Shown one piece after another: positions 937-26,864 of a stretch of 64,000 bases of DNA. The position numbers and the translations under genes are program-made. Position 1 is the first letter of the stretch. Each line of letters begins with the position of its first letter. The notes beneath the pieces are model-generated. The model was not told the origin of the DNA and ran no database searches. It was given only the letters and a program-made list of their open reading frames with translations. The DNA comes from Spartobacteria bacterium (lineage in GTDB: Bacteria; Verrucomicrobiota; Verrucomicrobiia; Chthoniobacterales; UBA6821), in contig CANIVT010000001.1 in NCBI GenBank assembly GCA_947471565.1, positions 132,612 to 196,611 on the forward strand, read 5' to 3'.

Positions 937-3393
937 CTATAATTCCTTCAATTGTCCGTCGAATTGTCTGGTCTGACCAAGAATAAATTGAAGCTCCTGC
1001 ATTTGCCCTCCATAACGAAGCCCGCAATGGGTGCCTTTCAAACTCTTGACCTTGACGCTCTTGAGCTTGCCGGACTGCCAGGACAAGTCCACGACAAAGC
1101 CGCCTCGTGTGCGCACGCCTTGAAGCGATCCATCTTGCCAGGCCTTGGGTAGGGCTGGCAGCAGGTCTATCATAAACGCCTCGTAGGCTTGATTGGATGT
1201 CGCCGTCGGCAGGATGGTGCACTCGGTGTGGCTTTGCACCAGCATCTCGCAAACAGCAGCCGTGTATCCGAAATTGCCATCGATCTGAAACGGTGGGCAA
1301 GAGTCAAAAAGGTTGGAAAGAACGCTGGTCTTGATCCAGCCCTTGAGGAGGTCGTACGCACGGTCTCCATCGGCAAGCCGGGCCCAACAACATATCTTCC
1401 AAATTCTGCTCCAGCCAGTGGCCCCATTTCCCCGCAAATCAAGCGATTTGCGGGCGGCAGTCGACCAAGAGACGGTTGTTAAGGGTGTAATCTGCTTGCC
1501 GGGATACAACGCCCAAAGATGCGAAAGATGGCGATGCCTTTCTTCGGAAAGCTTCCAAGGTTCGATCCACTCCTGCACGCTCCCGTCGGGCGCGATCTTC
1601 ACCGGAGGCGACAACTTACAAAGACGATCCTGGAGTTGGGCTACAAAATCCGCATCGACGCCAAGAATGTGGGCTGCCTTGATTGTGTTTCTAAACAAGT
1701 CATGGGCAATTTGTTGATCGCTTGCGGTGCCCGCACTGTGGAAATAACGCTGCCCATCTGAAGAGATGAACCCGACTTCCGGCGAACGGGAAGGTGAAAT
1801 CACAAGGTTGCCGTCCCGGTAGGGCATCAGCATATCCATGGTAAATTCACAGGCCTCTTTCATCACGGGGTACGCCTGTTCCCTCAAATATGTGGTGTCT
1901 CCGGTGAAAAGATAATGGTCAAAGAGATTCTGACAGAGCCATCCTCCAGCGCCCATCCACAACCATCTAGGGCCGGCGTATGCCCAGGGGTTAGAGTAAA
2001 CGGATACATAGAATCCCCGCGCATTGAAATAGTCCTTGGCCGTTTGCCGTCCGGCTGGACGCAAAAACGAGACGTAACTGGCGAAGGGCCCAAACGTCTC
2101 CGGCAATGCCGCAGGCCCCGAAAGCCAGTAGTTCATCTCGATATTGATATCCGTATGATAATCACAATCCCACGCCGGCTTCGGGGAGTCGTTCCAGATG
2201 CCCTGCAAGTTTGCGGGCAACCCACCTGCGCGGGAAGAAGCGATCAGCAGATAACGGCCGAACTGGAATAGCAGCGTTTCCAATGCGGGGTCGCCTCCAT
2301 TTTGTTTTCGATAATCGGCCAACCTGCGATCCGTTGGCATCGCAAGCTGCGAATCGGAGGTTCCAGGGATACAGAATTTCACCCTCTCAAACAGAGCCCC
2401 ATAATCGGCCACATGCGACTGGCGCAATTGCGCTATGGAGCGCTCAGCGGCTGCATGGATCTGATTGGCTACAACCTTGGACGGATCGCGCCCTGAACTG
2501 CATTCCGGCCACACCATGGCGTGGTCTGTCGCCGCAGCCAAAACGATGGTGACCGTATCGGCTCCTTTGACAATCACCCGTCCTTCCAAGCGTTCGCTGG
2601 ACCCGCCAGAGGTAATTACCCGAAGCCTGGAGGCATAACGGAGATTGCTTATGGGCATAGCCCCGACACCCACCAGATCACCACTTTCCCCCGGAGTGAT
2701 GCTTCCACCCGGTTGTGCCAAGGTTTGGGCAATGGTGACATTGATTTGACCGGGCTTGTCCGCTTTGAGATGCACTACCAAAACCTGGTCTGGAAAGCTG
2801 GAAAAATATTCTCTGGTGAACAGCACTCCTTGTCGCCTGTAGCTGACACTAGCAATGGCCGTGTTTAGATCGAGTACCCTGCGATAATCCGTAACAGGCC
2901 CCTGATCTGGGAAGGTTAACGACACATCCCCAAATGGCTGATGGGCGCCGAAGGATGGTCGGGAGACGTTACCTGCTGCCTTGAGCAGTTCCTCTGCCTC
3001 CTTGATTGAACCCGCCGCAAGCAATGCACGAACCTTGGGAAGACAGGTCTGAAGCTGAGCTTGCGTGGGGGTCGTGTCGCGAGAGCCAGACCACAAGGAA
3101 CTCTCGTTAAACTGGAGGCGATCCAATTCCACTCCTCCAAAAACCATGCCCCCCAAGCGTCCATTGCCAATCGGTAGTGCCTCTGACATCCACTTTGTGG
3201 CAGGCTTGTCATACCAGAGATGCAACTGATCCTCCGCACCGGACGCATGTTCGGCCAGTGCAAAAATCCAGCAGATACAGACGGCAAAACTCTTTAAAAC
3301 GATATTTCGAAACAACACTGCCGCGTCTCCAAAGCGAGTGTAGCGCGTTATTATGTTTTCGGTTTTCGAATACTGGGAATGTGCTAATAACAT
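937..3393 (-). CDS. GH95-family glycoside hydrolase (alpha-L-fucosidase-like)
   Basis: 818-aa ORF. The N-terminal region WYDKPATKWMSEALPIGNGRLGGMVFGGVELDRLQFNESSLWSG is the hallmark GH95 N-terminal motif. A hydrophobic signal-like stretch precedes it. The exact start codon is uncertain. Confidence 0.8.
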   Translation of the reverse strand: MLLAHSQYSKTENIITRYTRFGDAAVLFRNIVLKSFAVCICWIFALAEHASGAEDQLHLWYDKPATKWMSEALPIGNGRLGGMVFGGVELDRLQFNESSLWSGSRDTTPTQAQLQTCLPKVRALLAAGSIKEAEELLKAAGNVSRPSFGAHQPFGDVSLTFPDQGPVTDYRRVLDLNTAIASVSYRRQGVLFTREYFSSFPDQVLVVHLKADKPGQINVTIAQTLAQPGGSITPGESGDLVGVGAMPISNLRYASRLRVITSGGSSERLEGRVIVKGADTVTIVLAAATDHAMVWPECSSGRDPSKVVANQIHAAAERSIAQLRQSHVADYGALFERVKFCIPGTSDSQLAMPTDRRLADYRKQNGGDPALETLLFQFGRYLLIASSRAGGLPANLQGIWNDSPKPAWDCDYHTDINIEMNYWLSGPAALPETFGPFASYVSFLRPAGRQTAKDYFNARGFYVSVYSNPWAYAGPRWLWMGAGGWLCQNLFDHYLFTGDTTYLREQAYPVMKEACEFTMDMLMPYRDGNLVISPSRSPEVGFISSDGQRYFHSAGTASDQQIAHDLFRNTIKAAHILGVDADFVAQLQDRLCKLSPPVKIAPDGSVQEWIEPWKLSEERHRHLSHLWALYPGKQITPLTTVSWSTAARKSLDLRGNGATGWSRIWKICCWARLADGDRAYDLLKGWIKTSVLSNLFDSCPPFQIDGNFGYTAAVCEMLVQSHTECTILPTATSNQAYEAFMIDLLPALPKAWQDGSLQGVRTRGGFVVDLSWQSGKLKSVKVKSLKGTHCGLRYGGQMQELQFILGQTRQFDGQLKEL

Positions 3394-3512
3394 CTTATCT
3401 CAGTCTCCCAGAAAATCCCTGCCACCGACAATCAACAAGTGATTTAGAAACGAGATGTTTGATGAGGTAATCATTGAGCTTATTAGCTTCCCCCGATGAT
3501 TAGGCCAAAGCT

Positions 3513-3562
3513 GGTTTGAGTTATTGCCCCCAAGGGTACCCTTGGGGGCAATAACTCAAACC
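3513..3562. repeat. perfect 50-bp palindrome (25+25, centre GGTACC)
   Basis: ggtttgagttattgcccccaagggt / acccttgggggcaataactcaaacc is an exact reverse complement with no spacer. Checked base by base. Confidence 0.95.
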
Positions 3563-3567
3563 CAGAC

Positions 3568-3706
3568 CATGAAGAAAACACGACATACGGAAGAGGCGAT
3601 CATCCAGGTGCTTAATGAGGCACGAGCTGGAGAAGAGAAGCGGTCATGCTTCTTTCCTACCACTCCGCCGCTCTGGTGCAACAGACTTTCTTTGCCGGCG
3701 AGTTGA
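3568..3706 (+). pseudogene. IS3-family transposase OrfA N-terminal remnant (about 22 codons recognisable)
   Basis: MKKTRHTEEAIIQVLNEARAGE resembles the start of IS3/IS407-group OrfA (MKKSRFTEEQI..L.EAEAG). The rest of the 60-aa ORF is unrelated, and there is no orfB. It starts 5 nt after the palindrome. Confidence 0.35.
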
Positions 3707-3806
3707 TTCCTAGGCAGTCGGAAATGTCGATATCAGCTTCAGCGGCGGTTTCCATCGAGTTTTCAGCTCTGTCTGGGCAATCCTCCCAGCGGAAGCATCA
3801 AGAGGG

Positions 3807-3959
3807 CTACATCGATTTCTGAACTGCTCCGGCGCCCTGAGTGACACTGCGACCTGTAGCGCTGACATCTTGACCGACGCCCTTCATGGTATTGCAGCCC
3901 GTGAGGGTAATGGTAACGGCAAGGACAAGGGCTAGGATGGTGAGTGAGGTTGTTTGCAT
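3807..3959 (-). CDS. entericidin A/B-family small lipoprotein
   Basis: 50 aa from the internal ATG at 3959: MQTTSLTILALVLAVTITLTGCNTMKGVGQDVSATGRSVTQGA... matches the EcnB pattern LTxCNTxRGxGEDIsxxGxxIsxAA, including the lipobox LTGC. Confidence 0.75.
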   Translation of the reverse strand: MQTTSLTILALVLAVTITLTGCNTMKGVGQDVSATGRSVTQGAGAVQKSM

Positions 3960-4103
3960 GATGGAAGCTTCCCACAGCGACGGCCCCATTTCCATTGGTA
4001 GAAACGCTTAGTTACCGCTCTGTCCGTGCTAAGCGGATTCCTTAGCGTCATCTTAGCGTTTCCCCATCTATCGAGGAAAGTCCGGGGGGCGTAGAGTGAC
4101 ACT

Positions 4104-4286
4104 ATGAAAACAATCTCCCTGATCGGAATCGCCAGTCTTCCACTCACTCTCCTGCTGACATCGTGTTTTTCGTTGAGCACGACTAGGACAGCCGTACCGG
4201 AAAGAACGACCACCATTTCTCAACAGACTAGGAGTTCATCGCAGTCACCGACCACGACGACCACAACGCGCTCCACCACTTATTAA
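4104..4286 (+). CDS. small Thr/Ser-rich lipoprotein, hypothetical
   Basis: 60-aa ORF with a signal peptide and lipobox-like LLTSC, followed by a T/S-rich tail. No homology recognised. Confidence 0.3.
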   Translation: MKTISLIGIASLPLTLLLTSCFSLSTTRTAVPERTTTISQQTRSSSQSPTTTTTTRSTTY

Positions 4287-4340
4287 TCAAAGATCCCAAC
4301 GTCACTTCACTAAAAGTCAAACCCTCAACCTACAAACATC

Positions 4341-4490
4341 ATGCTCTACACAATCGCCATTGTTCTTCTTGTCCTCTGGGCGCTCGGACTCGTCAGCGCC
4401 TACACGATGGGAGGATTTATCCACATCCTGCTTGTCTTCGCCTTGGTGGTACTTCTTATCCAGATCATCCAGGGAAGAAAGATCGGCTGA
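4341..4490 (+). CDS. lmo0937-family small membrane protein
   Basis: 49-aa ORF, below the track cutoff: MLYTIAIVLLVLWALGLVSAYTMGGFIHILLVFALVVLLIQIIQGRKIG. This is the typical two-helix sequence of the lmo0937 family (MLxTI..IL.VLWLLG....GG.IHILLV.A....I..I.GR). Confidence 0.7.
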   Translation: MLYTIAIVLLVLWALGLVSAYTMGGFIHILLVFALVVLLIQIIQGRKIG

Positions 4491-4513
4491 GATGGCTGCT
4501 TGGCCATCATTCC

Positions 4514-4597
4514 ATGGTAAAAAATCCACAAAACCTCCTCTTGGCAGCAGGCGTCATCCTGACTGCGCTTGCCTGCATTTTATTTGGAGTGGGATGA
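4514..4597 (+). CDS. possible 27-aa single-TM peptide
   Basis: MVKNPQNLLLAAGVILTALACILFGVG. It starts 24 nt after the lmo0937-like gene and lies in the same small-peptide cluster. No other support. Confidence 0.2.
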   Translation: MVKNPQNLLLAAGVILTALACILFGVG

Positions 4598-4651
4598 ATT
4601 AGCCGCTTTTCTCTTCGCCTTTCAGAACACTGTGAGCAGTCTTATAAAACA

Positions 4652-5185
4652 ATGAAATCAGCCCTCTTCACGATCCTACTTTGCCCCGTGGTACTCTTAT
4701 GCGGCTGTCTGTCGACCTCACCTAAAAAGGTCCCCCTGAAAACGGTCGCTTACGTCGATCTGCCCCGCTTCATGGGGGACTGGTATGTCATCGGAACGAT
4801 CCCGTGGATCGTGGAGAAGAACAACGTGGGAACAATGGATATTTACAAGATGAGGCCAGATGGTCGCATCGACATCACCTACGCTTTTCACAAGAATGAT
4901 CTCTCGGCAAAGCACCAAGAGATGCACGCAGTTGGCACCGTGTTGGATACAAAGACCAATGCCCGGTGGGGAGTCCAGTTTATCTGGCCTTTCAAAGCTC
5001 CTTACCTCGTCATCGATCTGGCACCTGATTACAGCACGACGACGATTGGCTACCCATCGAGGGATCTGATTTGGATTATGGCCCGTACACCGACACTGCC
5101 TGAAAGCACGTATCAGGAACTGCTTCAGAAGGCATCCAACCAAGGATACGATATCCATCGGATTGTTAAAGTTCCCCAGAAATAG
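4652..5185 (+). CDS. blc: bacterial lipocalin (outer-membrane lipoprotein Blc family)
   Basis: Lipoprotein signal ending LLCGC, and the lipocalin motif VDLPRFMGDWYVIGTIP. 177 aa. Confidence 0.8.
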   Translation: MKSALFTILLCPVVLLCGCLSTSPKKVPLKTVAYVDLPRFMGDWYVIGTIPWIVEKNNVGTMDIYKMRPDGRIDITYAFHKNDLSAKHQEMHAVGTVLDTKTNARWGVQFIWPFKAPYLVIDLAPDYSTTTIGYPSRDLIWIMARTPTLPESTYQELLQKASNQGYDIHRIVKVPQK

Positions 5186-14803: not shown

Positions 14804-16408
14804 ATGGCCCGTCCCAAGAAATCTTCCTCTTCCTCTTCCAAGGACTCCTCGGCCAATCTCGGCTTTGAGGCGAAGCTCTGGCTCGCCGCTGACAAGCTCC
14901 GGAACAACATGGATGCGGGCGAGTACAAGCACGTCGTCCTTGGCCTCATCTTCCTGAAGTACATCTCCGACAGCTTCGAGGAGCATCATGCCAAGCTCAT
15001 TGAGGGAGAGGGTGAGTACGCCGGGGCCAATCCCGAGGACAAGGACGAGTACCTCGCTGCCAACGTCTTCTGGGTTCCGAAGGAGGCCCGCTGGTCCTTC
15101 CTCCAGGGGAGTGCCAAGCTCCCGTCGATCGGCAAGCTCGTCGACGACGCCATGGTCGCCCTCGAACGGGACAACCCCCGACTCAAGGGCTCCCTGAACA
15201 AGAACTACGGACGCGCCGACCTCGATAAGAACCGCCTCGGCGAGCTCATCGACCTCATCGGCTCCATCCAGCTCGTAGATGCCGCCAGCCGGTCCAAGGA
15301 CCTCCTTGGGCGTGTCTTTGAGTACTTCCTTACTCAGTTCGCCAGTGCCGAGGGTAAGAACGGCGGCCAATTCTACACACCCTCCTGCGTCGTCCGCCTC
15401 CTTGTCGAGATGGTCGCCCCGTACAAGGGACGCATCTACGACCCGGCCTGCGGCTCGGGCGGCATGTTCGTCCAGAGTGAGAAATTCGTGGAATCCCACG
15501 GCGGCAAGCTGGGCGACATCAGCGTCTACGGCCAGGAGAGCAACCCCACCACCCGCCGCCTCGCCATCATGAACCTCGCCCTCCGGGGCATCGAGGCAGA
15601 CTTTGGACCCGAGAATGCAGACACGTTCCGCCGACCACTCCACCCCGACCTCCGGGCTGACTTCGTCCTGGCCAATCCTCCCTTCAACGACTCCGACTGG
15701 TACCGCAAAGACGATGACGTCCGCTGGCAGTATGGCGTCCCGCCTAAGGGGAATGCGAACTTCGCCTGGGTTCAGCACTTCATTCACCACCTTGCCCCAA
15801 AGGGAATGGCCGGCTTCGTTCTCGCGAATGGCTCAATGTCCTCAAACCAATCCGGAGAGGGGGAAATCAGGAAGGCCCTGATTGAGGCAGACCTCGTCGA
15901 CTGCATGGTCGCACTCCCTGGACAGCTCTTCTACTCCACCCAGATCCCCGTCTGCCTCTGGTTCCTCACGAGGAGCAAGAACGATGGAAAGCGCCGTGAC
16001 CGCCGCAAGGAAACCCTCTTCATCGATGCCCGGAGGATGGGCACCCTCATCGACCGTGTCCACCGCGAGCTTACGGAGGCCGACCTCGTGAAGATCGTCT
16101 CCACTTACCACGCATGGAGAGGGGATGAGATTCCTCAGGTTTCAGGTCTCAAGTCTCAGGTTTCCTCGTCGGCCTACGCCGACATCCCCGGCTTCTGCAA
16201 ATCTGCCACCACCGCCGAGATCGCCGCCCATGGTCATGTCCTCACACCTGGCCGCTACGTCGGAGCCGAGGAGATCGAGGATGATGGAGAGCCCTTCGAG
16301 GAGAAAATGCCCCGACTTGTTGCCGAGCTGAATATCCAGTTCGCCGAGTCTGCGAAACTCGAGCTGGCCATCAAGGCCAACCTGAAAGGACTTGGGTATG
16401 AAATCTGA
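14804..16408 (+). CDS. hsdM: type I restriction-modification system, DNA methyltransferase subunit M
   Basis: HsdM N-terminal domain ([32 protein letters not shown]). AdoMet motif [10 protein letters not shown]. Catalytic LANPPFN. Confidence 0.9.
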
Positions 16409-16550: not shown

Positions 16551-17474
16551 ATGAAAAACGAGAAGCGTCATCACACCATCCAAGAACAGGTTCAGCTACT
16601 TCTGGCACGAGGGCTTGAAGGAGATCCTGACCTCATGGCATCTCGTTTGGCCGTGGTGAACTACTACCGACTGAGCGGCTACTGGTTTCCAATGCAAATG
16701 GGGGCTAGTTACCCCGAAATCATCGGCGCTACTCCAGAAACATTCCGGCCCGGATCAACTTTTGAAAACGTCTGGAGGAGATATACCTTTGATCGGGAGT
16801 TGCGACTTCTTGTTCTGGATGCAATTGAGCGATTCGAAGTTGCAGTCAGAACTCAGCTTGCCTACCACCACGCTTTCATCCACGGCCCTTTTGGCTATGC
16901 GAATGACCCAAAATCTAGGCCGAAATTGAAGCGAGAGGATTTTGCCAAATTTTACGCCGGATTACTGGAAGAGTTGGGAAGGAGTAAGGAACAATGCATA
17001 AAACATTATTTTAAGAAATATGGTGATGAACATGATGTTCCGCCCATCTGGCAGGCTGTGGAAGTCATGAGCTTTGGGAACATCGTCACCCTCTATCGGC
17101 ACACAACCAGTAAAGTGAAACAGGGGGTAGCCAGCACCTTTGGTATTCCTGATACCGTGATGGAGTCCTGGTTGCTTTCTCTCAACACCATTCGCAACAT
17201 TTGCGCTCATCACTCCCGGCTTTGGAATCGAGAATTGGGCAATAGGCCGATGATCCCTCGCTTGGAGGAATTTCCCGACTGGCATCTCCCGGTTCAGATC
17301 CGTAATGAGAAATTGTTCGGGATTCTAACCATCCTGAAATACTCCATGAATAGAATTGCCCCTCAGAGCCAGTGGGCACTTCGCTTCCATCAATTTCTCG
17401 CCGACTATCCCGACATCCCCATTGCCGATATGGGGTTCCCTGAGAATTGGGATCAAAACCCGATCTGGAAATGA
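16551..17474 (+). CDS. Abi_2-family (AbiD/AbiF-like) abortive-infection protein
   Basis: HTIQEQVQLLLARGL..., VNYYRLSGYWFP and YTFDRELRLLVLDAIERFEVAVRTQLAY follow the Abi_2 family pattern. The gene is embedded between hsdM and hsdS. Confidence 0.7.
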   Translation: MKNEKRHHTIQEQVQLLLARGLEGDPDLMASRLAVVNYYRLSGYWFPMQMGASYPEIIGATPETFRPGSTFENVWRRYTFDRELRLLVLDAIERFEVAVRTQLAYHHAFIHGPFGYANDPKSRPKLKREDFAKFYAGLLEELGRSKEQCIKHYFKKYGDEHDVPPIWQAVEVMSFGNIVTLYRHTTSKVKQGVASTFGIPDTVMESWLLSLNTIRNICAHHSRLWNRELGNRPMIPRLEEFPDWHLPVQIRNEKLFGILTILKYSMNRIAPQSQWALRFHQFLADYPDIPIADMGFPENWDQNPIWK

Positions 17475-17504: not shown

Positions 17505-18815
17505 ATGGTGACTGAGTTTCAACAGCACGAAGTCGCAAAACTCATCAGCGACGGAACGCTGATGATCAACGACGGCTATCGCGCCAAAAACAGCGAACTG
17601 TCACATGCTGGCATTCCTTTTGCCCGAGCGGGAAACATTGATGGGGGCTTTCATTTTGAGGACTCCGATCGGGTTCCTGCTGAGACTCTTGCAAAAGTGG
17701 GTCAAAAAAAGAGCCAGGCTGGAGATGTAGTTTTTACATCAAAGGGAACAGTAGGACGGTTTGCTTTTGTTCGAGAGCACACCCCAGAGTTTGTCTATTC
17801 GCCTCAACTCTGTTTCTGGCGCTCCTTAGATGCCTCCCTCATCGACCCTAGATGGCTCTTCTACTGGATGAATGGTCGGGAGTTCTATCTTCAGTTCAAA
17901 GGCGTATCAGGACAGACCGACATGGCAGAGTATGTCAGTCTTCGTGACCAGCGGGCCATGAAGATGACCCTCCCACCCCTCTCCGAGCAGAAGCGAATTG
18001 CGGAAGTGTTGGGAGCTCTGGATGACAAGATCGAACTGAACCTGAGGATGAATGCCACGCTTGAGGCCACCGCCCGAGCCCTCTTCCAGAGCTGGTTCAT
18101 CGACTTCGATCCCGTCCGCGCCAAGCTCGACGGCCGAAAGCCCTCCGGCATCGATCCAGCCACCGCAACCCTCTTCCCCGACTCCTTCGAAGAATCCCCC
18201 CTCGGCCACATCCCCAAAGGGTGGGAAGTCCGACCACTAGCCAGTTTAACAACATATCTTAGCCGTGGTATCGGCCCCTCATACCTTGAACAGGGAGGGG
18301 TGTGCGTTCTGAATCAGAAATGCGTTCGTGACCATCGAGTAGATTTTACCAAATCCCGAAGACACGATTCCGTAAAAAAGCCCATCAATAAGCGCGGTTT
18401 GCAGCTTCACGATGTCTTGGTGAACTCTACTGGAATGGGAACGCTTGGACGAGTAGCTCAACTCTTTTATTTGCCTGAAGCGACAATTGTAGACTCGCAC
18501 GTCACCATCGTGCGTGCGGCCTCAAATACTGATCCATTCTTTCTAGGCATTAACCTGACTGGACGTGAAACTGAGATCGAGGAGTTAGGGGAAGGTTCTA
18601 CCGGTCAAACTGAACTTAGCCGCATAAGGCTAGGAGGACTTAAACTCATTACTCCTTCGTTTGACCTTCAAAAGGCGTTTGGATCAGCAGTTGCTCCACT
18701 CCTGATGAGTATGTCTGAAAACGAAAAGCAATCCCGCACCCTATCCACCCTCCGCGACACCCTCCTCCCAAAACTCCTGAGCGGGGAGTTGAGCGCAAAA
18801 GCACTTCAGATATAA
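17505..18815 (+). CDS. hsdS: type I restriction-modification system, specificity subunit S
   Basis: Two target-recognition domains are separated by conserved helices (LPPLSEQKRIAEVLGALDDKIELN... and ...LSTLRDTLLPKLLSGEL). AGGAGG lies 9 nt upstream of the ATG. Confidence 0.85.
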   Translation: MVTEFQQHEVAKLISDGTLMINDGYRAKNSELSHAGIPFARAGNIDGGFHFEDSDRVPAETLAKVGQKKSQAGDVVFTSKGTVGRFAFVREHTPEFVYSPQLCFWRSLDASLIDPRWLFYWMNGREFYLQFKGVSGQTDMAEYVSLRDQRAMKMTLPPLSEQKRIAEVLGALDDKIELNLRMNATLEATARALFQSWFIDFDPVRAKLDGRKPSGIDPATATLFPDSFEESPLGHIPKGWEVRPLASLTTYLSRGIGPSYLEQGGVCVLNQKCVRDHRVDFTKSRRHDSVKKPINKRGLQLHDVLVNSTGMGTLGRVAQLFYLPEATIVDSHVTIVRAASNTDPFFLGINLTGRETEIEELGEGSTGQTELSRIRLGGLKLITPSFDLQKAFGSAVAPLLMSMSENEKQSRTLSTLRDTLLPKLLSGELSAKALQI

Positions 18816-18824
18816 AGGACTCTA

Positions 18825-19580
18825 GTGATTTCTTCCGTAACGATTGTTGAAGTGCTGGAAAGAGCCCAACAGGGAATCACCAAGCCGTTTCTTTGCCGAG
18901 GTGATGATGACAGGCTTTACTACGTTAAAGGGAGGGCAGCCGGTTGTCGTTCTCTCTGTTGTGAGTGGATTGCAGGGAATCTTGCTAGAGACGTAGGCTT
19001 ACCAATACCCGAGTTTTTGATTGCGGAAGTGCCAGAGACTTTGGTGAGGGATAGCTCCCATTCCGAAATCAATGATCTCGGTTCTGGCTTTGTATTTGCA
19101 TCTTTACGAGTTGAGGGAGCACAGGAAATAACATGGCCAGAAGCCCAGGGATGTAAGATAGATGAAAAGGCATTGGTTCTTATCTTCGATTGGTGGGTGC
19201 AAAACGAGGATCGCTCTCTTTCAGTACATGGAGGAAACCCTAACCTCCTCACAACACCTTATAAAAATAAGGATATTAAATTATGGGTTTTCGACTTTAA
19301 TCTGGCTTTTGATCTCAATTTCTCAGAGGAGAAATTCAGATCAAATCATCTATTTTATGACCTTCTGTCTGAATGGCCATTGGGTTTTCGCCAGAACGTG
19401 ACTGGAAAGATGAAGGTTGCTGTTGAGCGTCTTGATGAGCTGTTTGCAGCCCTTCCTGAGGAGTGGCTCTATTTTCAGGGGGATAAAAATCTTGCGGTGC
19501 ATTTGGATAAAAATCTGGTATCAGTTATTCTCTCCATACCGTTCACCGAACCCGACCGTTTTTGGAAAAGCCTGCTATGA
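18825..19580 (+). CDS. short HipA-like (PI3/4-kinase-fold) kinase, kinase core only
   Basis: 251 aa from a GTG 9 nt after hsdS. Motifs: RLYYVKG (Lys), FDWWVQNEDRSLSVHGGNPNLL (DRH-x-x-N-like catalytic loop) and LWVFDFNLAF (DFG-like). It lacks the HipA N-terminal domains. Confidence 0.6.
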   Translation: MISSVTIVEVLERAQQGITKPFLCRGDDDRLYYVKGRAAGCRSLCCEWIAGNLARDVGLPIPEFLIAEVPETLVRDSSHSEINDLGSGFVFASLRVEGAQEITWPEAQGCKIDEKALVLIFDWWVQNEDRSLSVHGGNPNLLTTPYKNKDIKLWVFDFNLAFDLNFSEEKFRSNHLFYDLLSEWPLGFRQNVTGKMKVAVERLDELFAALPEEWLYFQGDKNLAVHLDKNLVSVILSIPFTEPDRFWKSLL

Positions 19581-20410
19581 ACCGCCCTGTCAAATATGCC
19601 TGCAATTATGCGGTGCTTCGATTCCGTCCCTACCCGGAAACGGCAGAGTTCGTGAATCTGGGGGTTGTGATGCACTGCCCAATGCTGGGTTTTTTCGATA
19701 CTCAGATTGAAACCCATAAAGTCGCAAGGGTCACAAATTTCTTTCCAGAGTTAGATCGTAAGACCTTTGCGGCGGCACGGAGGACAATTTTGGAAGAGGT
19801 GGATCGGATTAAAACAATGATTGCTCATCAAAAAGATGTTGAGGCTGGGCGCATCTTATTTGGTGAGTTGGTTCGTCCGCGTGAAGCGGTATTCCGCTTT
19901 GGAGAAATTCGCACGATTCTAACGGATGATCCAACTACTCTGGCTGGACACCTTTTTGCACAATATGTGCTTCGTCATTTTGCACAGGTCAAAGAGTATC
20001 AAGAAAACGTGATGGCTGATCGCTTCTTTAAGGCATTAAAGGAGTTTCGCCCGAACCAAACTTTTCATCGCAATAAAGCCGTAGGGACAGAAGAGTATCG
20101 AATTCGGATTCCAATATGTTCTGATTGGCGGAATCCAGAAGGTGTTCCCATGCGAGCCGTCAAGCCGTTGGATCTACAGAAGAAAGAGACTACTGATATC
20201 ATTGAGCATGGCGATTTGTGGGCTCAGCGACTTCGTAGGTTACGAATGGTAGAAAGACTTCCAGAAAGATTAATTTTTGCCGTAAGGCATCCAAAAGATA
20301 TTGCCGGTAAAAAAGCGGCTGGAGATGTGTTGGCGTCATTAAAAGACGCAGGGGGAATTTTGGTGGACGCTGCAGATACAGAAAGAATTCTCGAATTAGC
20401 AGCAGACTAA
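19577..20410 (+). CDS. DUF3037-like protein, function unknown
   Basis: The ATG at 19577 overlaps the kinase stop (ATGA). The N-terminus VKYACNYAVLRFRPYPETAEFVNLGVVM fits the pattern Y.YAV.R..P....EF.N.GV that I associate with DUF3037. 277 aa. Confidence 0.6.
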   Translation: MNRPVKYACNYAVLRFRPYPETAEFVNLGVVMHCPMLGFFDTQIETHKVARVTNFFPELDRKTFAAARRTILEEVDRIKTMIAHQKDVEAGRILFGELVRPREAVFRFGEIRTILTDDPTTLAGHLFAQYVLRHFAQVKEYQENVMADRFFKALKEFRPNQTFHRNKAVGTEEYRIRIPICSDWRNPEGVPMRAVKPLDLQKKETTDIIEHGDLWAQRLRRLRMVERLPERLIFAVRHPKDIAGKKAAGDVLASLKDAGGILVDAADTERILELAAD

Positions 20411-20421
20411 ATTGACTGCTG

Positions 20422-20541
20422 ATGAGCGGTCTGAACGAATCCCATCTCGAGGAGGCCGCGCTGGAGTGGCTGGCTGAGCTGGGCTATGCCCTCGGCCACG
20501 GGCCCGACATGGCACTGGGGAAATTCCTGATTCCTGACTGA
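20422..20541 (+). pseudogene. hsdR 5' stub (39 codons), duplicate of the start of the intact hsdR
   Basis: [33 protein letters not shown]... compared with Hsd[33 protein letters not shown].... Nt 20431-20514 align with 23712-23795 at 78/84 identity, and all 6 differences are synonymous. The stub then diverges and stops. Confidence 0.85.
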
Positions 20542-20557
20542 TTAATAGGAGAATCCC

Positions 20558-21868
20558 ATGAGCGACGAGACCCCTCAGAAAGAACTCACCCGCGAGGAAC
20601 TCTACGAGAAGGTCTGGTCGACTCCAGGGACGAAACTAGCAGAGGAACTGGGGATCTCGGATGTGGCGATCACGAAGCGCTGCAAGAAGCTGAATGTCCC
20701 CCGTCCCTCCCGCGGCTACTGGGCAAAGCTGGCGGCAGGGAGGAAATCCCCGAAGCTCCCGCTCCCTCCCACACCTGATGAGGTCTTTCTCAAGTCGGCG
20801 GAGCAATCTGTCGGCAATGAGCTTTCCCTGCCTGAATCCATGGAATCCCTTCATGAGCTTGCCGCCGCGCTGATCGCTAAGATCAAGAAGGCACATGTCG
20901 ATTCTGACAAGCGAGCCAGCTTTTACGGTGATCGCACGCTACCGGAGGTCAAGGTGACGAAGGCTCAGGCGGAGCGAGCGGCACAGGCATTCCATGTGAT
21001 TCTTCAGAAGGTGGAGCCGCTGGGGATTACGTTCCGGAAGGCCCAGAGTTCCTATGGCCCCGCCTATTTCCAGAAAAGCCATGACCGGCTGTATCTCAAG
21101 ATCGAGGAGGAGATGATCGAGAAGACACCTACAGCGAGGCGGAGTCGGTATTCCGGATATGGCTATGGACTGAGGGAGGAGAAGGTTCCCTCGGGGCGGC
21201 TGATCTTTTCCCTCAAGACGGATCGCTACGGCTCGAGTGATGAGAAGGAGTTCACCGAGAGCGAGAGGCTGCCTCTCGATAAGGTGCTCGCCCGCGTGGT
21301 CAACGAGATCCGCAGTCACTATGTGGCCGCGCAGAAGCGGCGGAAGGCCGAGGCCATCCAGCGGGAGAAGGATCGGATCGAATCGGAAATTCGCCATAAG
21401 AAATATCTCGAGGAGAGGGCCATCAAGGAAGCAGAGGAGGCGAAGAAGAATCATGCCAAGGCGCTGAAGAAAACTGCCAAGAAGCGGCAGGATGATTTCC
21501 TGAAGGCCTCCGAGTGGTGGAGGATGTTCGAGTCGGCAAATGCATTCATCGTGGCGTGTGAGCACCGATGGAAGGAGAGCCAGAGTGGGGAGCTAACCTC
21601 CGAGCAGGTGGAGTGGATCACATGGGCGCGTAACATCTCAAATGACCTATCCCCGTTTGCCTTGGGGTACCCTGAGCCATCCAAGGATGGAGCCTTCAAC
21701 CCAGAAGAGGTGCCTTTCGGAGGCCCCTATCCTGAGATACGTGACTTTCCCCGGCCCCCGACGATGCCGAAGATCCCGCCTCCTGTCGTCGAGCAGAGAG
21801 GCTATGGCTACTCCTCAACCCCAGCGCCAACCCGCTACCCCTTCTGGCTCAGGCATCAGGGCCGATGA
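20558..21868 (+). CDS. hypothetical protein: N-terminal HTH-like motif, K/E-rich coiled-coil, Pro-rich tail
   Basis: 436-aa ORF with AGGAGA upstream. The N-terminus is ELYEKVWSTPGTKLAEELGISDVAITKRCKKLNVPRPSRGYWAK. The central part is KRRKAEAIQREKDRIESEIRHKKYLEERAIKEAEEAKK. No enzymatic motif recognised. Confidence 0.55.
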   Translation: MSDETPQKELTREELYEKVWSTPGTKLAEELGISDVAITKRCKKLNVPRPSRGYWAKLAAGRKSPKLPLPPTPDEVFLKSAEQSVGNELSLPESMESLHELAAALIAKIKKAHVDSDKRASFYGDRTLPEVKVTKAQAERAAQAFHVILQKVEPLGITFRKAQSSYGPAYFQKSHDRLYLKIEEEMIEKTPTARRSRYSGYGYGLREEKVPSGRLIFSLKTDRYGSSDEKEFTESERLPLDKVLARVVNEIRSHYVAAQKRRKAEAIQREKDRIESEIRHKKYLEERAIKEAEEAKKNHAKALKKTAKKRQDDFLKASEWWRMFESANAFIVACEHRWKESQSGELTSEQVEWITWARNISNDLSPFALGYPEPSKDGAFNPEEVPFGGPYPEIRDFPRPPTMPKIPPPVVEQRGYGYSSTPAPTRYPFWLRHQGR

Positions 21869-21973
21869 GGGTCATTATCACAAATCCCTGATGGAGAGAT
21901 TCATGAGACGAAACTACTAATTATAAACGTTTTAGTAGTTGGCTAGTAGTTACAGGACTATACGGAATATATA

Positions 21974-22019
21974 TCGCCATAACTGGCGAAATATCTTGAT
22001 TAAAGCGATCAATTCGCCA
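21974..22019. promoter_or_regulatory. putative HipB operator half-sites (TCGCCA) upstream of hipB
   Basis: TCGCCA-taac-TGGCGA is an inverted repeat at 21974-21989. A third TTCGCCA lies at 22013-22019, 14 nt before the hipB ATG, in an AT-rich stretch. Confidence 0.3.
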
Positions 22020-22032
22020 TATTTGACGCATT

Positions 22033-22398
22033 ATGAAGATCTCTCTGGAGATGAATGATGGTACGATCCTCCGGGAGCTCGGGGAGAGGCTTGCCCATGC
22101 CCGCTTGGAGAGGAATCTGACGCAGGCGGCGCTGGCCGAGCAGGCCGGAGTCGCCAAGAGGACACTCGAGCGACTGGAGTCGGGTGAGGTGGCGGCTCAG
22201 CTCTCCGCGTTTCTCCGTGTCTGCCGGGTGCTTGGTCTGCTCGATCGCCTCGACGCCCTAATCCCGGAAGCCAAGCCCGGCCCGATGGAGTTGCTGAGGC
22301 TTCAGGGTAGGAAGAGGCAACGTGCCTCCAAGGCCTCTGTCCAGAAATCTGCCAGGGTCAAGGAGGGCTCCCGCTGGAGCTGGGGGGATCCGTCATGA
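22033..22398 (+). CDS. hipB: XRE-family HTH antitoxin (HipB-like)
   Basis: LRELGERLAHARLERNLTQAALAEQAGVAKRTLERLESG is a classic XRE HTH. The stop overlaps the hipA start (ATGA, 22395-22398). Confidence 0.75.
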   Translation: MKISLEMNDGTILRELGERLAHARLERNLTQAALAEQAGVAKRTLERLESGEVAAQLSAFLRVCRVLGLLDRLDALIPEAKPGPMELLRLQGRKRQRASKASVQKSARVKEGSRWSWGDPS

Positions 22399-23699
22399 TC
22401 GCGGAGGTCCGGCTCTGGGGCAGGCGGATCGGTGCTCTCTCTATGGATGAAGGGCGGGAGGTTGCGGCTTTCCAGTATGATCCGGAGTTCGCTGGGAGCG
22501 GGATTGAGATCGCTCCGCTGATGATGCCGCTGGGCGAGCGGGTGCATGAGTTCCCCGCGTTGTCCCGGGAGTCGTTTCACGGTTTGCCCGGAATGCTCGC
22601 GGATTCCCTGCCGGATAAGTTCGGCAATGCGCTGATCAATGCGTGGCTGGCAACGCAAGGGCGGACGCCGGGGAGCTTCGGTGCGCTGGAGCGTCTCTGC
22701 TACACGGGTTCCCGCGGGATGGGTGCGCTGGAGTATCTTCCCGCGCTCGGGCCGAGGCCGCGTCGTGCGGTGAAGGTGCGCATCGATGCCCTGGTCGATC
22801 TGGCCTCGGAGGTGCTCTCCCATCGGGGGGATCTGCAGGGGCATTTTCATGACGAGGGTAAGGCGAAGGCGCTGGCCGATATCCTGCGCGTGGGGACGTC
22901 GGCGGGCGGGGCCCGGGCGAAGGCTGTTATCGCTTGGAATGAGGAGACTCACGAGGTGCGCTCCGGACAGATCGAGGCCGGGGATGGCTTTGGCTACTGG
23001 CTGCTGAAGTTTGACGGGGTCTCGGGCAACCGTGACAAGGAGAATGAGGATCCCCGGGGATACGGGGTGACCGAGTATGCCTATCACCTTATGGCATGCG
23101 CGGCGGGGATCGCGATGAGCGAGTGTCGTCTGATGGAAGAGGGAGAGCGGAGGCATTTCATGACGCGGCGGTTCGACAGGCTGCCGGGTGGGGAGAAGCT
23201 GCACATGCAGTCGCTGGCGGCGCTGGCACATCTCGATTTCAACCGTGCCGGGGCTCATTCATATGAGCAGGCCTTTCTGGTGATCCAGCAACTCGGTCTG
23301 CCGATGGCCTCGGTGGAGGAGCAGTTCCGCCGGATGGCCTTCAACATCGTTGCCCGCAATCAGGACGACCATGTGAAGAATATCGCCTTCCTGATGGATC
23401 AGGATGGGGGGTGGTCGCTTTCGCCTGGCTTCGACCTGACCTACAGCTTCAATCCCGGAGGTGCCTGGACGGCCTCGCACCAGATGACGATGAACGGAAA
23501 GAGGGAGGGGTTCACGAGGGGGGATTTCGACGCCTGTGCCAAGGCGGCTGGAATGAAACGTGGGCGTGCAGGCACAATCCTCGACGAGGTGATCGCCGCC
23601 GTGAAAGACTGGCCACGCTTCGCCATACAGGCGAAGCTCTCGGAGTCGACGATGAGCAAGATCCAGAAGGTCCACCTACTCGATTTTCCGAAACAGTAA
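22395..23699 (+). CDS. hipA: type II toxin-antitoxin system HipA-family serine/threonine kinase toxin
   Basis: 434 aa. N-terminal coupling domain (VRLWGRRIGALSMDEG...FQYDPEF). GLPGMLADSLPDKFGN. Kinase core with ARNQDDHVKNIAF and LSPGFDLTYS. Confidence 0.85.
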   Translation: MIAEVRLWGRRIGALSMDEGREVAAFQYDPEFAGSGIEIAPLMMPLGERVHEFPALSRESFHGLPGMLADSLPDKFGNALINAWLATQGRTPGSFGALERLCYTGSRGMGALEYLPALGPRPRRAVKVRIDALVDLASEVLSHRGDLQGHFHDEGKAKALADILRVGTSAGGARAKAVIAWNEETHEVRSGQIEAGDGFGYWLLKFDGVSGNRDKENEDPRGYGVTEYAYHLMACAAGIAMSECRLMEEGERRHFMTRRFDRLPGGEKLHMQSLAALAHLDFNRAGAHSYEQAFLVIQQLGLPMASVEEQFRRMAFNIVARNQDDHVKNIAFLMDQDGGWSLSPGFDLTYSFNPGGAWTASHQMTMNGKREGFTRGDFDACAKAAGMKRGRAGTILDEVIAAVKDWPRFAIQAKLSESTMSKIQKVHLLDFPKQ

Positions 23700-23705
23700 C
23701 CGCCC

Positions 23706-26700
23706 ATGTCCCTGAACGAATCCCATCTCGAGGAAGCCGCGCTGGAGTGGCTGGCCGAGCTCGGCTATGCCCTCGGCCATGGACCCGACATGGCTCCGGG
23801 AGAGGTTGCTGCCGAGCGGGAGACCTTCTCCGAGGTGGTACTGAAGGGGCGTCTACGTGAGGCGATCCATCGACTCAATCCCGCGATCCCTGCCGAGGCA
23901 CGCGAGGAGGCTCTCAGGAAGGTCCTGCGCCACGAGACGACCTCCCTAATCGGGAATAACCGGGCCTTCCACCATCATCTGCGCGACGGGGTGCCGGTGG
24001 AGTATCGCCGGGCTGATGGATCTATCGCTGGGGATCGGGTACGGCTGGTGGACTTCGCTGATCCTGCCGCCAATGACTGGCTGGCGGTGAATCAGTTCAC
24101 CGTGATCGAGGGCCAGCATAACCGCCGTCCCGATGTGATCCTCTACCTGAACGGTCTGCCTCTCGCCGCGATCGAGCTCAAGAATGCTGCCGATGAGGAG
24201 GCGACGATCTGGAGCGCCTTCTCCCAGCTCCAGACCTACAAGGCGGAGATTCCCTCCCTGATGAACTACAACGAGATCCTCGTGGTCTCCGATGGTCTGC
24301 AGGCCCGGATCGGATCGCTGACGGCGAATCAGGAATGGTTCAAGGTCTGGCGCACGATCGATGGTGACGGGGATGCTCCCAAGAGCGCCCTGGAGCTGGA
24401 GGTGCTGATCCGGGGAGTCTTTGACCGGAAGCGCTTCCTCGGGCTGCTGGAGCATTTCGTGACCTACGAGGAGGACCCTGACAACGGGTCGGTCCATAAG
24501 ATCATTGCTGGGTATCATCAGTTCCACGCGGTGAATGCCGCCGTCGAGGAGACGATCCGTGCAAGCGGGATGGGCGACGAGAACCGAGCCAAGGAAGGAG
24601 ATGGGGCCTACTGGTCGGGTCGCATGGAGGAGGGAGCGCCGGGTGACCGTCGCGCCGGGGTGGTCTGGCACACGCAGGGAAGCGGCAAGAGTTTCTCGAT
24701 GCTTTTTTATGCCGGACGGATGGCCCGTCACCCTGCGATGCAGAATCCGACCCTCATTGTGCTGACCGACCGGAATGATCTCGACGATCAGCTCTTCGGC
24801 CAGTTTCAGCGCTGCCATGAGACGCTGGGTCAGATGCCCATTCAGGCAGAGAGCAGGGAGCATCTCCGAGAACTCCTCAATCGTGCCAGCGGCGGAGTCA
24901 TTTTCACAACGATTCACAAATTCGCCGCTGAGAAAGACTCGGCAAAGAAAGCCCTCTCCGAGCGCCGCAATATCGTCGTCATCGCCGACGAGGCCCATCG
25001 TTCCCAATACGACCTGATAGATGGATTCGCCCGCGACATGAGGGATGCCGTGCCCCATGCCTCGTTCATCGGATTCACCGGGACGCCGATCGAGAAGGCG
25101 GATGCCAATACGCGGGCGATCTTCGGCAACTACATCTCCGTCTATGACATCCAGCGGGCCGTGGCTGATAAAGCAACAGTCCCAATCTACTATGAGAGCC
25201 GGATTGCCAAGCTGGGGCTCAATGCCTCGGAGCTGCCGAAGCTCGACGCGGAGTTCGAGGAGATCACCGAGGGCGAGGAGGAGGGGAGTCGGGAAAAGCT
25301 CAAGACGAAGTGGGCCGCGCTGGAGGCTCTGGTCGGAGATCCGAAGAGGATCGCCCTGATCGCCAAGGATCTCGTGGAGCACTTCGAAAAGCGTCTCGAG
25401 GCGATGGATGGCAAGGCGATGGTCGTCTGCATGAGCCGCCGCATCTGCGTCGATCTCCACGAGGCGATCCTGAAGCTTCGCCCCGAGTGGGCCAGTGCCA
25501 AGGATGACGATTCCGAAGGCGAGAAGGGGAAAGCGTGCGTGGTGAAGGTCGTCATGACCGGAAGTGCCAGCGATGGCCCCGAGTGGCAGCAGCACATCCG
25601 CAACAAGGAGAAGCGCCGAAAGCTCGCCAACCGCTTCAAGGACAGCAAGGACCCCTTCCGTATCGTGATTGTCCGAGACATGTGGCTGACGGGATTCGAC
25701 GCTCCGTGCCTTCACACCATGTATGCCGACAAGCCGATGCGCGGCCACGGGCTTATGCAGGCGATCGCTCGGGTGAACCGGGTCTTCCGCGACAAACCGG
25801 GTGGACTGATTGTCGATTACCTCGGGCTAGCCGATCAACTTAAGCAGGCGCTGGCCACCTACACGGAGAGCGGAGGCCAGGGTCATCCCACCTATGACGA
25901 GAAGCAGGCCATCGCGATCCTTCTGGAGAAGCACCAGATCGCCTCCGACATGCTCCATGGCTACGACTGGTCCAAGTGGGCGACGGGTTCCTCGGCAGAA
26001 AAAATCAAACTCATCCCCGGAGCGCAGGAGCATATTCTGGAACAGGAGGACGGGAAGAAACGCTTCGTCCAGGTCGTGACGGAACTCTCGCGGGCCTTTG
26101 CCCTTTCGGCGGCCAGCGATGAGGCCACGGCCATCCGGGATGACGTCGCCTTCTTCCAGGCCGTACAGGTGGCCCTCAACAAGCAGGAGAGTAAGAGCGG
26201 TAAGAATCCCGAGCAACTCGACGCGGCCGTTCGCCAGCTTGTCTCCAAGGCGATTACGACAGAGGGACAGGTGATCGATGTCTTTACGGCGGCGGGACTA
26301 CCCCGTCCTGACATAGGCATCCTCTCGGACAAGTTCCTCGCCGAGGTGAGGGGGTTGAAGCACAAGAACGTCGCCGCCGAACTGCTGGAGAAGCTCCTCA
26401 AAGATGAGCTCAAGGTCCGATCCAAGCGGAATTTCGTCCAGGCCAAGCAATTCAGCGATAAGCTGAAGCAGACCCTCAACGGCTACCATAACCGCGCCAT
26501 CTCCACGATGGAGGTGATCGAGGAGCTGATCAAGCTGGCCAAGGAACTCGACTCCGCCACCAAGCGGGGCGTCGATCTCGGGCTCACCGATGACGAGGTG
26601 GCTTTCTACGATGCACTCGCCGCCAATGAGTCAGCCGTCCGAGCGCTCGGCAATGAGCAACTCAAGGTGATCGCCAGCGAACTCATCACTCAGGTACGCA

Positions 26701-26864
26701 AGAGTGCCACGATCGACTGGACCCTCCGGGAAAGTGCCCGAGCCAAGATCCGCGTCATCGTGAAGCGCATCCTTAACAAATACGGCTACCCACCAGACCT
26801 CCAGGACCCAGCCGTCCAAACCGTCCTCCAACAGGCCGAACTCCTCTGTGCTGAGGTGGTGTAA
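23706..26864 (+). CDS. hsdR: type I restriction-modification system, endonuclease/helicase subunit R
   Basis: 1052 aa. N-terminal nuclease region ([19 protein letters not shown]). Walker A-like [12 protein letters not shown] box [10 protein letters not shown]. Motif VI-type QAIARVNR. Confidence 0.9.

Follow-up and report, generated by a model that had tools for sequence, protein, structure and literature searches.

The closest described relatives of the locus analysed here are pairs of a short HipA-like kinase and a DUF3037 protein. DS-6, from the E. coli prophage PhiR5_1 and since renamed HipAD, was shown to provide anti-phage defence, and this defence was lost in the kinase mutant D139A (DefensePredictor, Science 2026; PMC13092281). 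Direct binding between the kinase and the antitoxin of HipAD has been reported as an AlphaFold3 prediction (PMC13092281), and the C-terminal domain of DS-6B was annotated as DUF1829 by HHpred with a probability of 0.78 (PMC13092281, supplement). A second pair is carried by the Retron-Sda1 operon, in which deletion of the kinase abolished defence against Bas51 and deletion of DUF3037 was toxic, and in which the RT, ncRNA and HTH were dispensable for defence (PMC12548924). Because loss of DUF3037 was toxic and loss of the kinase abolished defence, the kinase is the toxin of this standalone defence pair and the DUF3037 protein is its antitoxin. RT-HipA/DUF3037 associations have been reported in Bacteroidota and Pseudomonadota (PMC12548924). 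In PADLOC the combination is already present as PDC-M66, one of the PDC candidates, a set derived by prediction from genes that lie inside BREX, DISARM and type I restriction-modification (R-M) loci. An earlier note on the DNA studied here had held that the combination had no experimentally described role. This was incorrect, as publications already assign the function of the pair, which has been validated both as DS-6/HipAD (PMC13092281) and in Retron-Sda1 (PMC12548924).

The window, a stretch of 64,000 nucleotides from a contig of a Spartobacteria bacterium (CANIVT010000001.1), encodes two ORFs on the forward strand between hsdS and a stub of hsdR. ORF1 (18825–19580), a putative hipA-like toxin gene, reads from GTG 18825 to TGA 19580 and encodes a 251-aa kinase. 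No other start codon lies between the hsdS stop and this GTG, which has AGGA upstream of it. ORF1 matched the Pfam family HipA_2 (PF20613) at full length, over profile positions 1–239 of 240 (E 4.8e-71), and also matched PADLOC model PDC-M66A (E 7.4e-15) and phrog_3162 (E 1e-49). ORF2 (19577–20410), a putative hipD-like antitoxin gene, reads from ATG 19577 to TAA 20410 and encodes a two-domain protein of 277 aa; its homologs begin at ATG 19577 and not at the upstream TTG 19562. Residues 11–131 of ORF2 matched Pfam DUF3037 (PF11236, E 4.2e-23), and matches were also obtained to PDC-M66B (E 4.8e-20) and, over the full length, to phrog_5137 (E 1e-50). NCBIfam models matched neither ORF1 nor ORF2. 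The domain calls of the earlier note, a short HipA-like kinase and a DUF3037 protein, were borne out by these searches, and the PADLOC search that it had proposed for the locus recovered both proteins.

A tblastn search found phage PhiR5_1, in which genes annotated 'HipA toxin' and 'HipD antitoxin' (249 and 275 aa) are located at 3243–3992 and 3989–4816 with a 4-nt overlap. The encoded proteins were 100% identical to DS-6A and DS-6B of the DefensePredictor supplement. Alignment of ORF1 with DS-6A by BLASTP revealed 35% identity over nearly the full length (E 2e-40), and ORF2 had 25% identity to DS-6B across residues 9–261 (E 3e-27). The DS-6 proteins scored 6e-15 with PDC-M66A and 3.8e-16 with PDC-M66B, so that ORF1 and ORF2, with the values given above, are on a par with the validated E. 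coli pair in these models. HipA_2 was the single Pfam match of DS-6A, as it was of ORF1, and with HMMER neither the C-terminal domain of ORF2 nor that of DS-6B could be placed in a Pfam family. The two systems therefore share their Pfam families, PADLOC models, gene order from kinase to DUF3037 on the same strand, 4-nt overlap, catalytic Asp (D129 of ORF1 aligned with D139 of DS-6A) and two-domain HipD, and their proteins are alike in size. They differ in that identity is only 35% and 25%, in that the host belongs to the Verrucomicrobiota whereas DS-6 comes from an enterobacterium, and in that the window pair lies inside a type I R-M operon whereas DS-6 is in the cI–kil region of a lambdoid prophage. 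Judged by these alignments, the pair is very probably a divergent member of the known system HipAD (= DS-6 = PADLOC candidate PDC-M66). What the window itself shows is homology, a complete set of catalytic residues, a conserved gene order with its overlap, a foreign composition and an R-M-embedded context. The Retron-Sda1 pair also consists of a kinase and a DUF3037 protein and is also a passenger in another defence locus, but the locus in that case is a retron operon from another bacterium; the 47-residue fragment of its kinase that was aligned with ORF1 (E 0.1) was too short for comparison.

The AlphaFold2 model of ORF1 was of high confidence (pLDDT 92.9, pTM 0.91), and a Foldseek search with it returned PI4K II-alpha (E 3.7e-6, TM 0.62), CtkA, HipA and HipT, which at the level of the predicted structure confirmed a kinase fold. 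The catalytic residues K35, D129 (in NEDR), N140 and D157 (in DFN) were all present in ORF1 and were invariant across 33 of its homologs. A reading of the pair as pseudogenes or as decaying genes was rejected, since both ORFs are intact, of full length and retain all conserved residues.

HipBA, known from HipA/HipB of E. coli and also encoded at 22033–23699 of the window, belongs to the same kinase toxin superfamily, and its toxin is likewise neutralised by a co-expressed partner. The likeness of ORF1 to HipA is in fold only. HipA structures were matched by Foldseek at E of about 1e-3, and PI4K II-alpha and CtkA resemble the ORF1 fold more closely than HipA does. An hhalign comparison of the kinase alignment with the window's own HipA detected no sequence relationship (probability 0.1%), and profile searches of the ORF1 and ORF2 alignments against PDB sequences gave no match; a sequence link between ORF1 and classical HipA was rejected on these results. 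ORF1 lacks the N-terminal domains of HipA, as the earlier note had observed: the Pfam search found no Couple_hipA domain in ORF1, while this domain is present in the full-length HipA at 22395–23699. The antitoxin gene of the pair is downstream of the kinase gene and its product is not an HTH protein, whereas HipB is an HTH protein encoded upstream. With neither a HipA_C nor a Couple_hipA match in ORF1 and with no HTH gene adjoining the pair, the pair is not a HipBA system. HipT of HipBST is likewise a short HipA-type kinase without the N-terminal subdomain, and HipT (8ezs) was among the Foldseek matches. HipT is, however, neutralised jointly by HipB and by HipS, a homolog of the N-terminal part of HipA that HipT lacks, whereas HipS and HipB are both absent beside the window pair, in which the partner is DUF3037. 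The view that the pair is neither hipBA nor hipBST was therefore upheld.

The type I R-M operon that contains the pair begins with hsdM (14804–16408, forward strand, as are all of the genes described here), which encodes the methyltransferase (Pfam N6_Mtase, E 1.4e-103, and HsdM_N). Between hsdM and hsdS is an Abi_2/AbiD-like abortive-infection gene (16551–17474; Pfam Abi_2, E 1.2e-54; PADLOC AbiD, E 8.6e-66; phrog_2158), which is a separate cassette. The specificity subunit gene hsdS (17505–18815; Pfam Methylase_S) is followed by the pair, with 9 nt between the hsdS stop (18815) and ORF1 and 11 nt between the ORF2 stop and the ATG (20422) of the hsdR stub; both gaps, read directly from the sequence, are as previously described. 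This 39-codon stub (20422–20541) encodes HsdR residues 1–32 and then continues into unrelated sequence. An 89-nt direct repeat with 92% identity links it (20431–20519) to the start of hsdR (23712–23800), so the stub is a genuine duplication of the hsdR 5′-end, and it separates the kinase pair from the cassette that follows. The second embedded block (20558–23699) encodes ORF436, followed by a canonical hipB (22033–22398; HTH_31/HTH_3) and a full-length hipA (22395–23699; HipA_C and Couple_hipA), and this hipBA is a separate, complete module. ORF436 (20558–21868, 436 aa) had no significant family match in Pfam, PADLOC, NCBIfam or PHROG, the only sub-threshold hit being Pfam RWP-RK (E 0.0067). 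It was rejected as a third component of the system because homologs were found in only 2/80 census loci and because the hsdR stub lies between ORF436 and the pair. The last gene of the operon is an intact hsdR (23706–26864, 1052 aa) encoding the restriction subunit, which gave full-length phmmer matches to the HsdR of related loci; the homologs in those loci carry HSDR_N, ResIII and T1RH-like_C. Four separate modules, AbiD, the HipAD-type pair, ORF436 and HipBA, are thus present in one hsd operon. Additionally, 5′ stubs of hsdR were seen repeatedly where cassettes meet, in several loci, the same junction being found in L085–L087, and this suggests a simple recombination route for the stacking of cassettes.

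The stop of ORF1 and the start of ORF2 share ATGA (19577–19580, forward strand), an overlap through which the two genes, for kinase and antitoxin, are translationally coupled, as had been proposed. The GC content was 0.446 for ORF1 and 0.459 for ORF2, with GC3 values of 0.417 and 0.403 (about 0.41), whereas hsdM and hsdR had a GC content of 0.61 and GC3 of 0.77–0.79; abiD and hsdS were intermediate (GC3 0.54). The AT-richer composition agreed with the earlier suggestion of a foreign cassette, and the pair appears to have been acquired horizontally by the type I R-M operon. It is likely to be co-transcribed with the hsd genes; a promoter and terminator scan of the operon showed no excess over shuffled sequence and was neutral on this point.

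A census was made of 80 DUF3037 loci from other genomes, in which type I genes were counted within 10 kb. The kinase was directly upstream of DUF3037 in 63/80 loci, and 58 of these 63 pairs had a 4-nt overlap (ATGA or GTGA); a Pseudomonas plasmid pair had the same 4-nt overlap. The DUF3037 family is not uniform, because the C-terminal domain was missing in 30/80 of the proteins and because for some DUF3037 genes the partner is not the kinase. Those without a kinase adjoined RloB, MmeI-type R-M, Dam methylase and HTH-M78 genes. A Glu/Gln tRNA-synthetase domain occurred in 1/119 flanking genes and was treated as chance. The commonest flanking families were HsdR, HsdS and HsdM, together with other PADLOC candidates. 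A type I gene was present within 10 kb in 24/80 loci; at least seven loci were clearly embedded in type I operons, and four more, on short contigs, had hsdR directly downstream.

These neighbourhoods, the close fit of the pair into the hsdS–hsdR slot and the lack of a visible promoter of its own would suit a module that is functionally tied to the type I enzyme and fires when a phage anti-restriction protein blocks restriction. PrrC and RloC share the genomic habit of a suicide effector located between hsd genes, and the proposal that type I loci use the hsdS–hsdR slot for extra defence genes was well founded. PrrC and RloC are, however, ABC-ATPase anticodon nucleases that are held by the R-M complex, and they have no homology to the pair. 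Cloned in E. coli, the DS-6 and Sda1 pairs provided defence by themselves (PMC13092281, PMC12548924). The E. coli copy belongs to a lambdoid prophage, where it is flanked by cI and kil and has no R-M genes nearby, plasmid copies lie among IS elements, and 56/80 loci lacked a type I gene within 10 kb. Cassettes unrelated to the pair (AbiD, hipBA, Fic and DUF3800) occupy the same operon slots, which suggests a landing pad and not a functional partnership. The family as a whole does not depend on R-M, since the tested systems work alone and most loci lack a type I gene nearby, and the description of the pair as a backup to restriction is not supported by these results. Coupling of the embedded kinase to the type I enzyme is unlikely, and it is just as doubtful that an embedded HipAD is expressed only with the restriction complex and set free once a phage disables restriction, which would make it a kinase-based counterpart of the PrrC-EcoprrI guard. 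For embedded copies R-M dependence may nevertheless hold, and what is at stake is whether R-M embedding is a mere landing-pad effect or has regulatory meaning.

The pair could also be a selfish toxin-antitoxin module that stabilises an acquired island and has no meaningful role in phage defence in this host. Its toxin-antitoxin architecture, the toxicity of antitoxin loss (PMC12548924), its foreign composition and the occurrence of the family on plasmids and mobile DNA are all compatible with addiction. This is nonetheless an improbable account of the pair, as two independent relatives gave measurable, kinase-dependent defence (PMC12548924, PMC13092281) and the family recurs in defence contexts; in addition, addiction and defence are not mutually exclusive roles.

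The AlphaFold2 model of ORF2 (pLDDT 88.9) showed two domains separated by a low-confidence linker (residues 134–137), the N-terminal domain being DUF3037 (residues about 1–131) and the C-terminal domain extending over residues about 138–277. The C-terminal 144 residues matched nothing in Pfam, even at E up to 10. Foldseek analysis of the C-terminal domain gave weak, mutually consistent matches to PD-(D/E)xK / restriction endonuclease folds, which are defined by an alpha-beta-beta-beta-alpha-beta core, namely Can2, R.BspD6I, AF1548 and Hef (E 0.03–0.4, the best in the PDB being 0.03), and matches to viral restriction endonucleases at E of about 2e-3 with a probability of 1.0. The conserved columns of this domain, as read from the alignment, were P179, K196, P197, L198, H211, G212 and W215; a D...(D/E)xK catalytic triad was not visible among them, and the predicted second strand contained no conserved acidic residue. 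That the roles are reversed or dual, with the DUF3037 protein acting as a nuclease effector or sensor regulated by the kinase, is highly improbable: the nuclease-like fold and the kinase-less DUF3037 genes near RloB, MmeI-type R-M, Dam methylase and HTH-M78 genes would accord with it, but the structural matches are weak (PDB hits at E 0.03 or higher), the triad is not seen, the domain is absent from 30/80 homologs, 19/29 short-form genes (classed by ORF length) are still paired with the kinase, and in Retron-Sda1 it was the DUF3037 deletion that was toxic and the kinase deletion that abolished defence (PMC12548924).

The preferred reading is that the pair is a HipAD-type toxin-antitoxin anti-phage module, horizontally acquired and carried between hsdS and hsdR. 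By analogy with relatives, in which the kinase and its catalytic Asp were required for defence and loss of DUF3037 was toxic, ORF1 would act as the toxin, being a minimal kinase of the Ser/Thr type with the HipA / PI3-4-kinase fold. ORF2 (HipD) would bind and neutralise this kinase, mainly through its DUF3037 domain, and the ATGA overlap would ensure that both proteins are synthesised together. The naturally short DUF3037 proteins hint that this domain may suffice for neutralisation. The same relatives support the broad proposal of the earlier note, that the DUF3037 protein restrains a kinase effector (PMC12548924, PMC13092281). Phage infection would relieve the inhibition, and the freed kinase would phosphorylate an essential target, so that growth stops and the infection is presumably aborted. 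The C-terminal domain of HipD, with its restriction-endonuclease-like fold, probably binds nucleic acid, possibly DNA, for autoregulation or sensing, and would not cut it.

As stated, the finding matters little, because PADLOC already includes the system and two studies have validated it. The locus adds a distant Verrucomicrobial member, on this reading, to HipAD and one more clear case of defence-gene nesting in a type I operon. The recurrence of hsdR stubs is a more interesting side observation than the pair itself, and it bears on how the operon collects cassettes.

The kinase gene (ORF1, 251 aa) extends from a GTG at 18825 to a TGA at 19580 and the DUF3037 gene (ORF2, 277 aa) from an ATG at 19577 to a TAA at 20410, with the ORF1 stop and the ORF2 start sharing the ATGA at 19577–19580. 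Reading of the sequence therefore confirmed the ORFs, coordinates and overlap of the coupled pair described in the earlier note. The GTG, preceded by AGGA, lies 9 nt past the hsdS stop in the frame of hsdS and is the first start codon after it; alignment of ORF2 homologs supported the ATG, not an upstream TTG, as the ORF2 start. The pair was foreign by composition, as the earlier note had proposed from its AT-richness: GC3 was 0.417 for ORF1 and 0.403 for ORF2, compared to 0.77–0.79 for hsdM, hsdR and hipBA, and was intermediate (0.54) for abiD and hsdS. A consensus scan found no excess of promoter-like or terminator-like sites over shuffled sequence, which makes co-transcription with the hsd genes plausible rather than demonstrated.

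ORF1 matched the Pfam family HipA_2 (PF20613; E 4.8e-71) over its whole length, and the N-terminal domains carried by the full-length HipA (22395–23699) were all absent from it in the Pfam search. Its AlphaFold2 model was confident (pLDDT 92.9, pTM 0.91) and was best superposed by Foldseek on a type II phosphatidylinositol 4-kinase (E 3.7e-6, TM 0.62), followed by the Helicobacter kinase CtkA and then by HipA and HipT. At the sequence level ORF1 was unrelated to classical HipA, with an hhalign probability of 0.1%, and a sequence search against solved structures returned zero matches. K35, D129 (NEDR), N138/N140 and D157/N159 (DFN) were invariant in 33/33 ORF1 homologs. Residues 11–131 of ORF2 matched DUF3037 (PF11236; E 4.2e-23), and its model (pLDDT 88.9) showed two domains with a low-confidence linker between them (residues 134–137). 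The domain-level reading of both proteins in the earlier note was correct.

PADLOC scored ORF1 as PDC-M66A (E 7.4e-15) and ORF2 as PDC-M66B (E 4.8e-20), its candidate models for the kinase and the DUF3037 protein. These 'phage defence candidates' are defined by guilt-by-embedding, as cassettes within BREX, DISARM and type I restriction-modification (R-M) loci (bioRxiv 10.1101/2024.01.29.577857). Defence against phage Bas51 by the HipA-like kinase and DUF3037 protein of the Retron-Sda1 operon did not require the RT, ncRNA or HTH; deletion of the kinase abolished defence, deletion of DUF3037 was toxic, and the authors considered the pair a standalone system in which the kinase is the toxin, and tied it to PDC-M66 (PMC12548924). 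The DefensePredictor study validated DS-6, 'renamed HipAD', found no defence with a catalytic mutant (D139A), and used AlphaFold3 to predict a DS-6A:DS-6B complex and DNA binding (PMC13092281). HHpred analysis of DS-6B gave DUF3037 (probability 0.9987) and, at residues 163–260, DUF1829 (probability 0.78) (PMC13092281 supplement).

A tblastn search of phage genomes with both window proteins found Escherichia phage PhiR5_1, in which adjacent genes encoding a 'HipA toxin' (249 aa) and a 'HipD antitoxin' (275 aa) overlap by 4 nt between cI and kil; the two products were 100% identical to DS-6A and DS-6B. ORF1 shared 35% identity with DS-6A (E 2e-40), and its D129 aligned with D139 (in NADR), the Asp replaced in the DS-6A mutant. 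ORF2 shared 25% identity with DS-6B across residues 9–261 (E 3e-27), so both domains align. The Pfam and PADLOC models matched by the window proteins also matched DS-6A and DS-6B, with similar scores. The window pair is a divergent member of a known, validated defence system, in a setting surveyed by the PADLOC embedding screen. The statement that the combination has no experimentally described role is out of date, as it is PDC-M66 in PADLOC and was tested both in the Retron-Sda1 operon and as DS-6/HipAD.

The E. coli version of the pair was present in 284/5,426 complete E. coli genomes, and copies on plasmids of Pseudomonas, Vibrio and Pantoea carried the annotations 'HipA family kinase' and 'DUF3037 domain-containing protein'. 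PHROGs includes both families, labelled 'unknown function'. A search of 1.84 billion proteins placed 771 cluster representatives in the ORF2 family (E ≤ 1e-3). The proteins most closely related to the window pair came from metagenomic Verrucomicrobiota. For a census, one genome per species was scanned with a DUF3037 alignment and 80 loci were kept. The kinase was directly upstream of DUF3037 in 63 of these, 58 of the 63 pairs having an ATGA or GTGA stop/start overlap. Two-domain proteins were encoded at 50/80 loci; the other 30, mostly from Verrucomicrobiaceae, had the N-terminal domain alone, and the C-terminal domain was absent elsewhere in those loci. As 19/29 short forms (counted by ORF length; within L038–L079) kept a kinase partner, the DUF3037 domain is pointed to as the part dealing with the kinase. 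DUF3037 genes without a kinase (L008, L012, L051, L056, L058 and L070) adjoined RloB, an MmeI-type R-M enzyme, D12 Dam methylases or an HTH-M78 protein, a hint that effectors other than the kinase can also pair with DUF3037.

A type I R-M gene lay within 10 kb at 24/80 loci; the pair was plainly embedded between hsdM/S and hsdR in seven, and hsdR was immediately downstream in four further loci on short contigs. The commonest families among 119 immediate neighbours were HsdR (7), HsdS (5) and HsdM (4–6), followed by the PADLOC candidates PDC-S15 and PDC-M02B, TIR and Eco57I-type genes; ordinary housekeeping genes were present too. By these counts R-M embedding is common but far from universal. 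One of these neighbours, beside a kinase/DUF3037 pair, encoded a class I Glu/Gln tRNA-synthetase catalytic domain (E 3.8e-105). As GltX is the target of classical HipA, this gene could be a lead, but it occurred only once among many housekeeping genes and is most likely there by chance.

We consider it likely that the pair acts in HipAD-type toxin-antitoxin defence, with the HipA_2 kinase as toxin and HipD (ORF2) as antitoxin. Translational coupling would produce the two in a fixed ratio, HipD probably binding the kinase directly, and infection would free the kinase and arrest the cell; the outcome may be abortive infection. In relatives, defence is lost without the kinase or its catalytic Asp, and HipD loss is toxic (literature on DS-6 and Retron-Sda1). 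The earlier proposal of a backup to restriction is weakened because the system works alone and most census loci have no R-M genes nearby; it is kept as an unlikely option for R-M-embedded copies. A purely selfish addiction role is somewhat less probable still, and falls behind HipAD-type defence. No Pfam family was found by HMMER in the ORF2 C-terminal domain, among whose Foldseek matches restriction-endonuclease and PD-(D/E)xK folds recurred, weakly in the PDB (Can2, R.BspD6I, AF1548 and Hef; E 0.03–0.4) and better among viral models (restriction endonucleases, E ~2e-3, probability 1.0). Inspection of the alignment showed no conserved D...(D/E)xK triad, so the domain is read as a binding domain, possibly for DNA, rather than a nuclease. 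Reversed roles, with HipD as the nuclease, are very improbable and also less likely than HipAD-type defence.

The window operon consists of hsdM (14804–16408), an AbiD-like abortive-infection gene (Abi_2; 16551–17474) with GC3 below the hsd core, hsdS (17505–18815), the kinase/HipD pair (18825–20410), an hsdR stub (20422–20541), a 436-aa ORF without known family (20558–21868), canonical hipB and hipA (22033–23699) and hsdR (23706–26864). It therefore holds two unrelated HipA-type kinase modules. The block from the kinase to the 436-aa ORF was kept in close relatives and the gene next to hsdR differed: this slot holds hipBA in the window, a Fic gene in one relative (L085:4030–5382), and a 401-aa ORF together with a DUF3800 gene in a more distant contig (L082:11858–13918). 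In the same related locus, the hsdM product had a DUF559 (Vsr-like endonuclease) match between HsdM_N and N6_Mtase (L082:5682–7820). The 436-aa ORF had no significant match in Pfam, PADLOC, NCBIfam or PHROGs; its N-terminus was weakly HTH-like and its middle part rich in Lys and Glu. Copies occurred within type I R-M loci adjacent to the kinase/DUF3037 pair, on either side (L052:7740–9050, L062:3755–5089 and L085:2596–3894); the ORF is probably a further defence candidate embedded in such loci.

The stub is a 39-codon ORF that starts 11 nt past ORF2 and copies the beginning of hsdR. It matched the start of the resident hsdR (23706–23800) at 92% identity before continuing into unrelated sequence, and included an 89-nt direct repeat (20431–20519 and 23712–23800, 92% identical). 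Such 5′ stubs, encoding HsdR residues 1 to about 32–65, were found at embedded-cassette borders in several independent type I loci (L001:327–689, L052:4160–4348, L061:2845–2997, L062:5111–5317 and L085:2460–2579). The junction was identical in the window and three related contigs, and stub length varied among the other loci. The pattern suggests that defence cassettes were stacked one after another upstream of hsdR through recombination, with the conserved hsdR start as anchor and an illegitimate join at the opposite end. The most useful leads left by this analysis are the target and trigger of the HipA_2 kinase and the recurrence of hsdR stubs at cassette borders.
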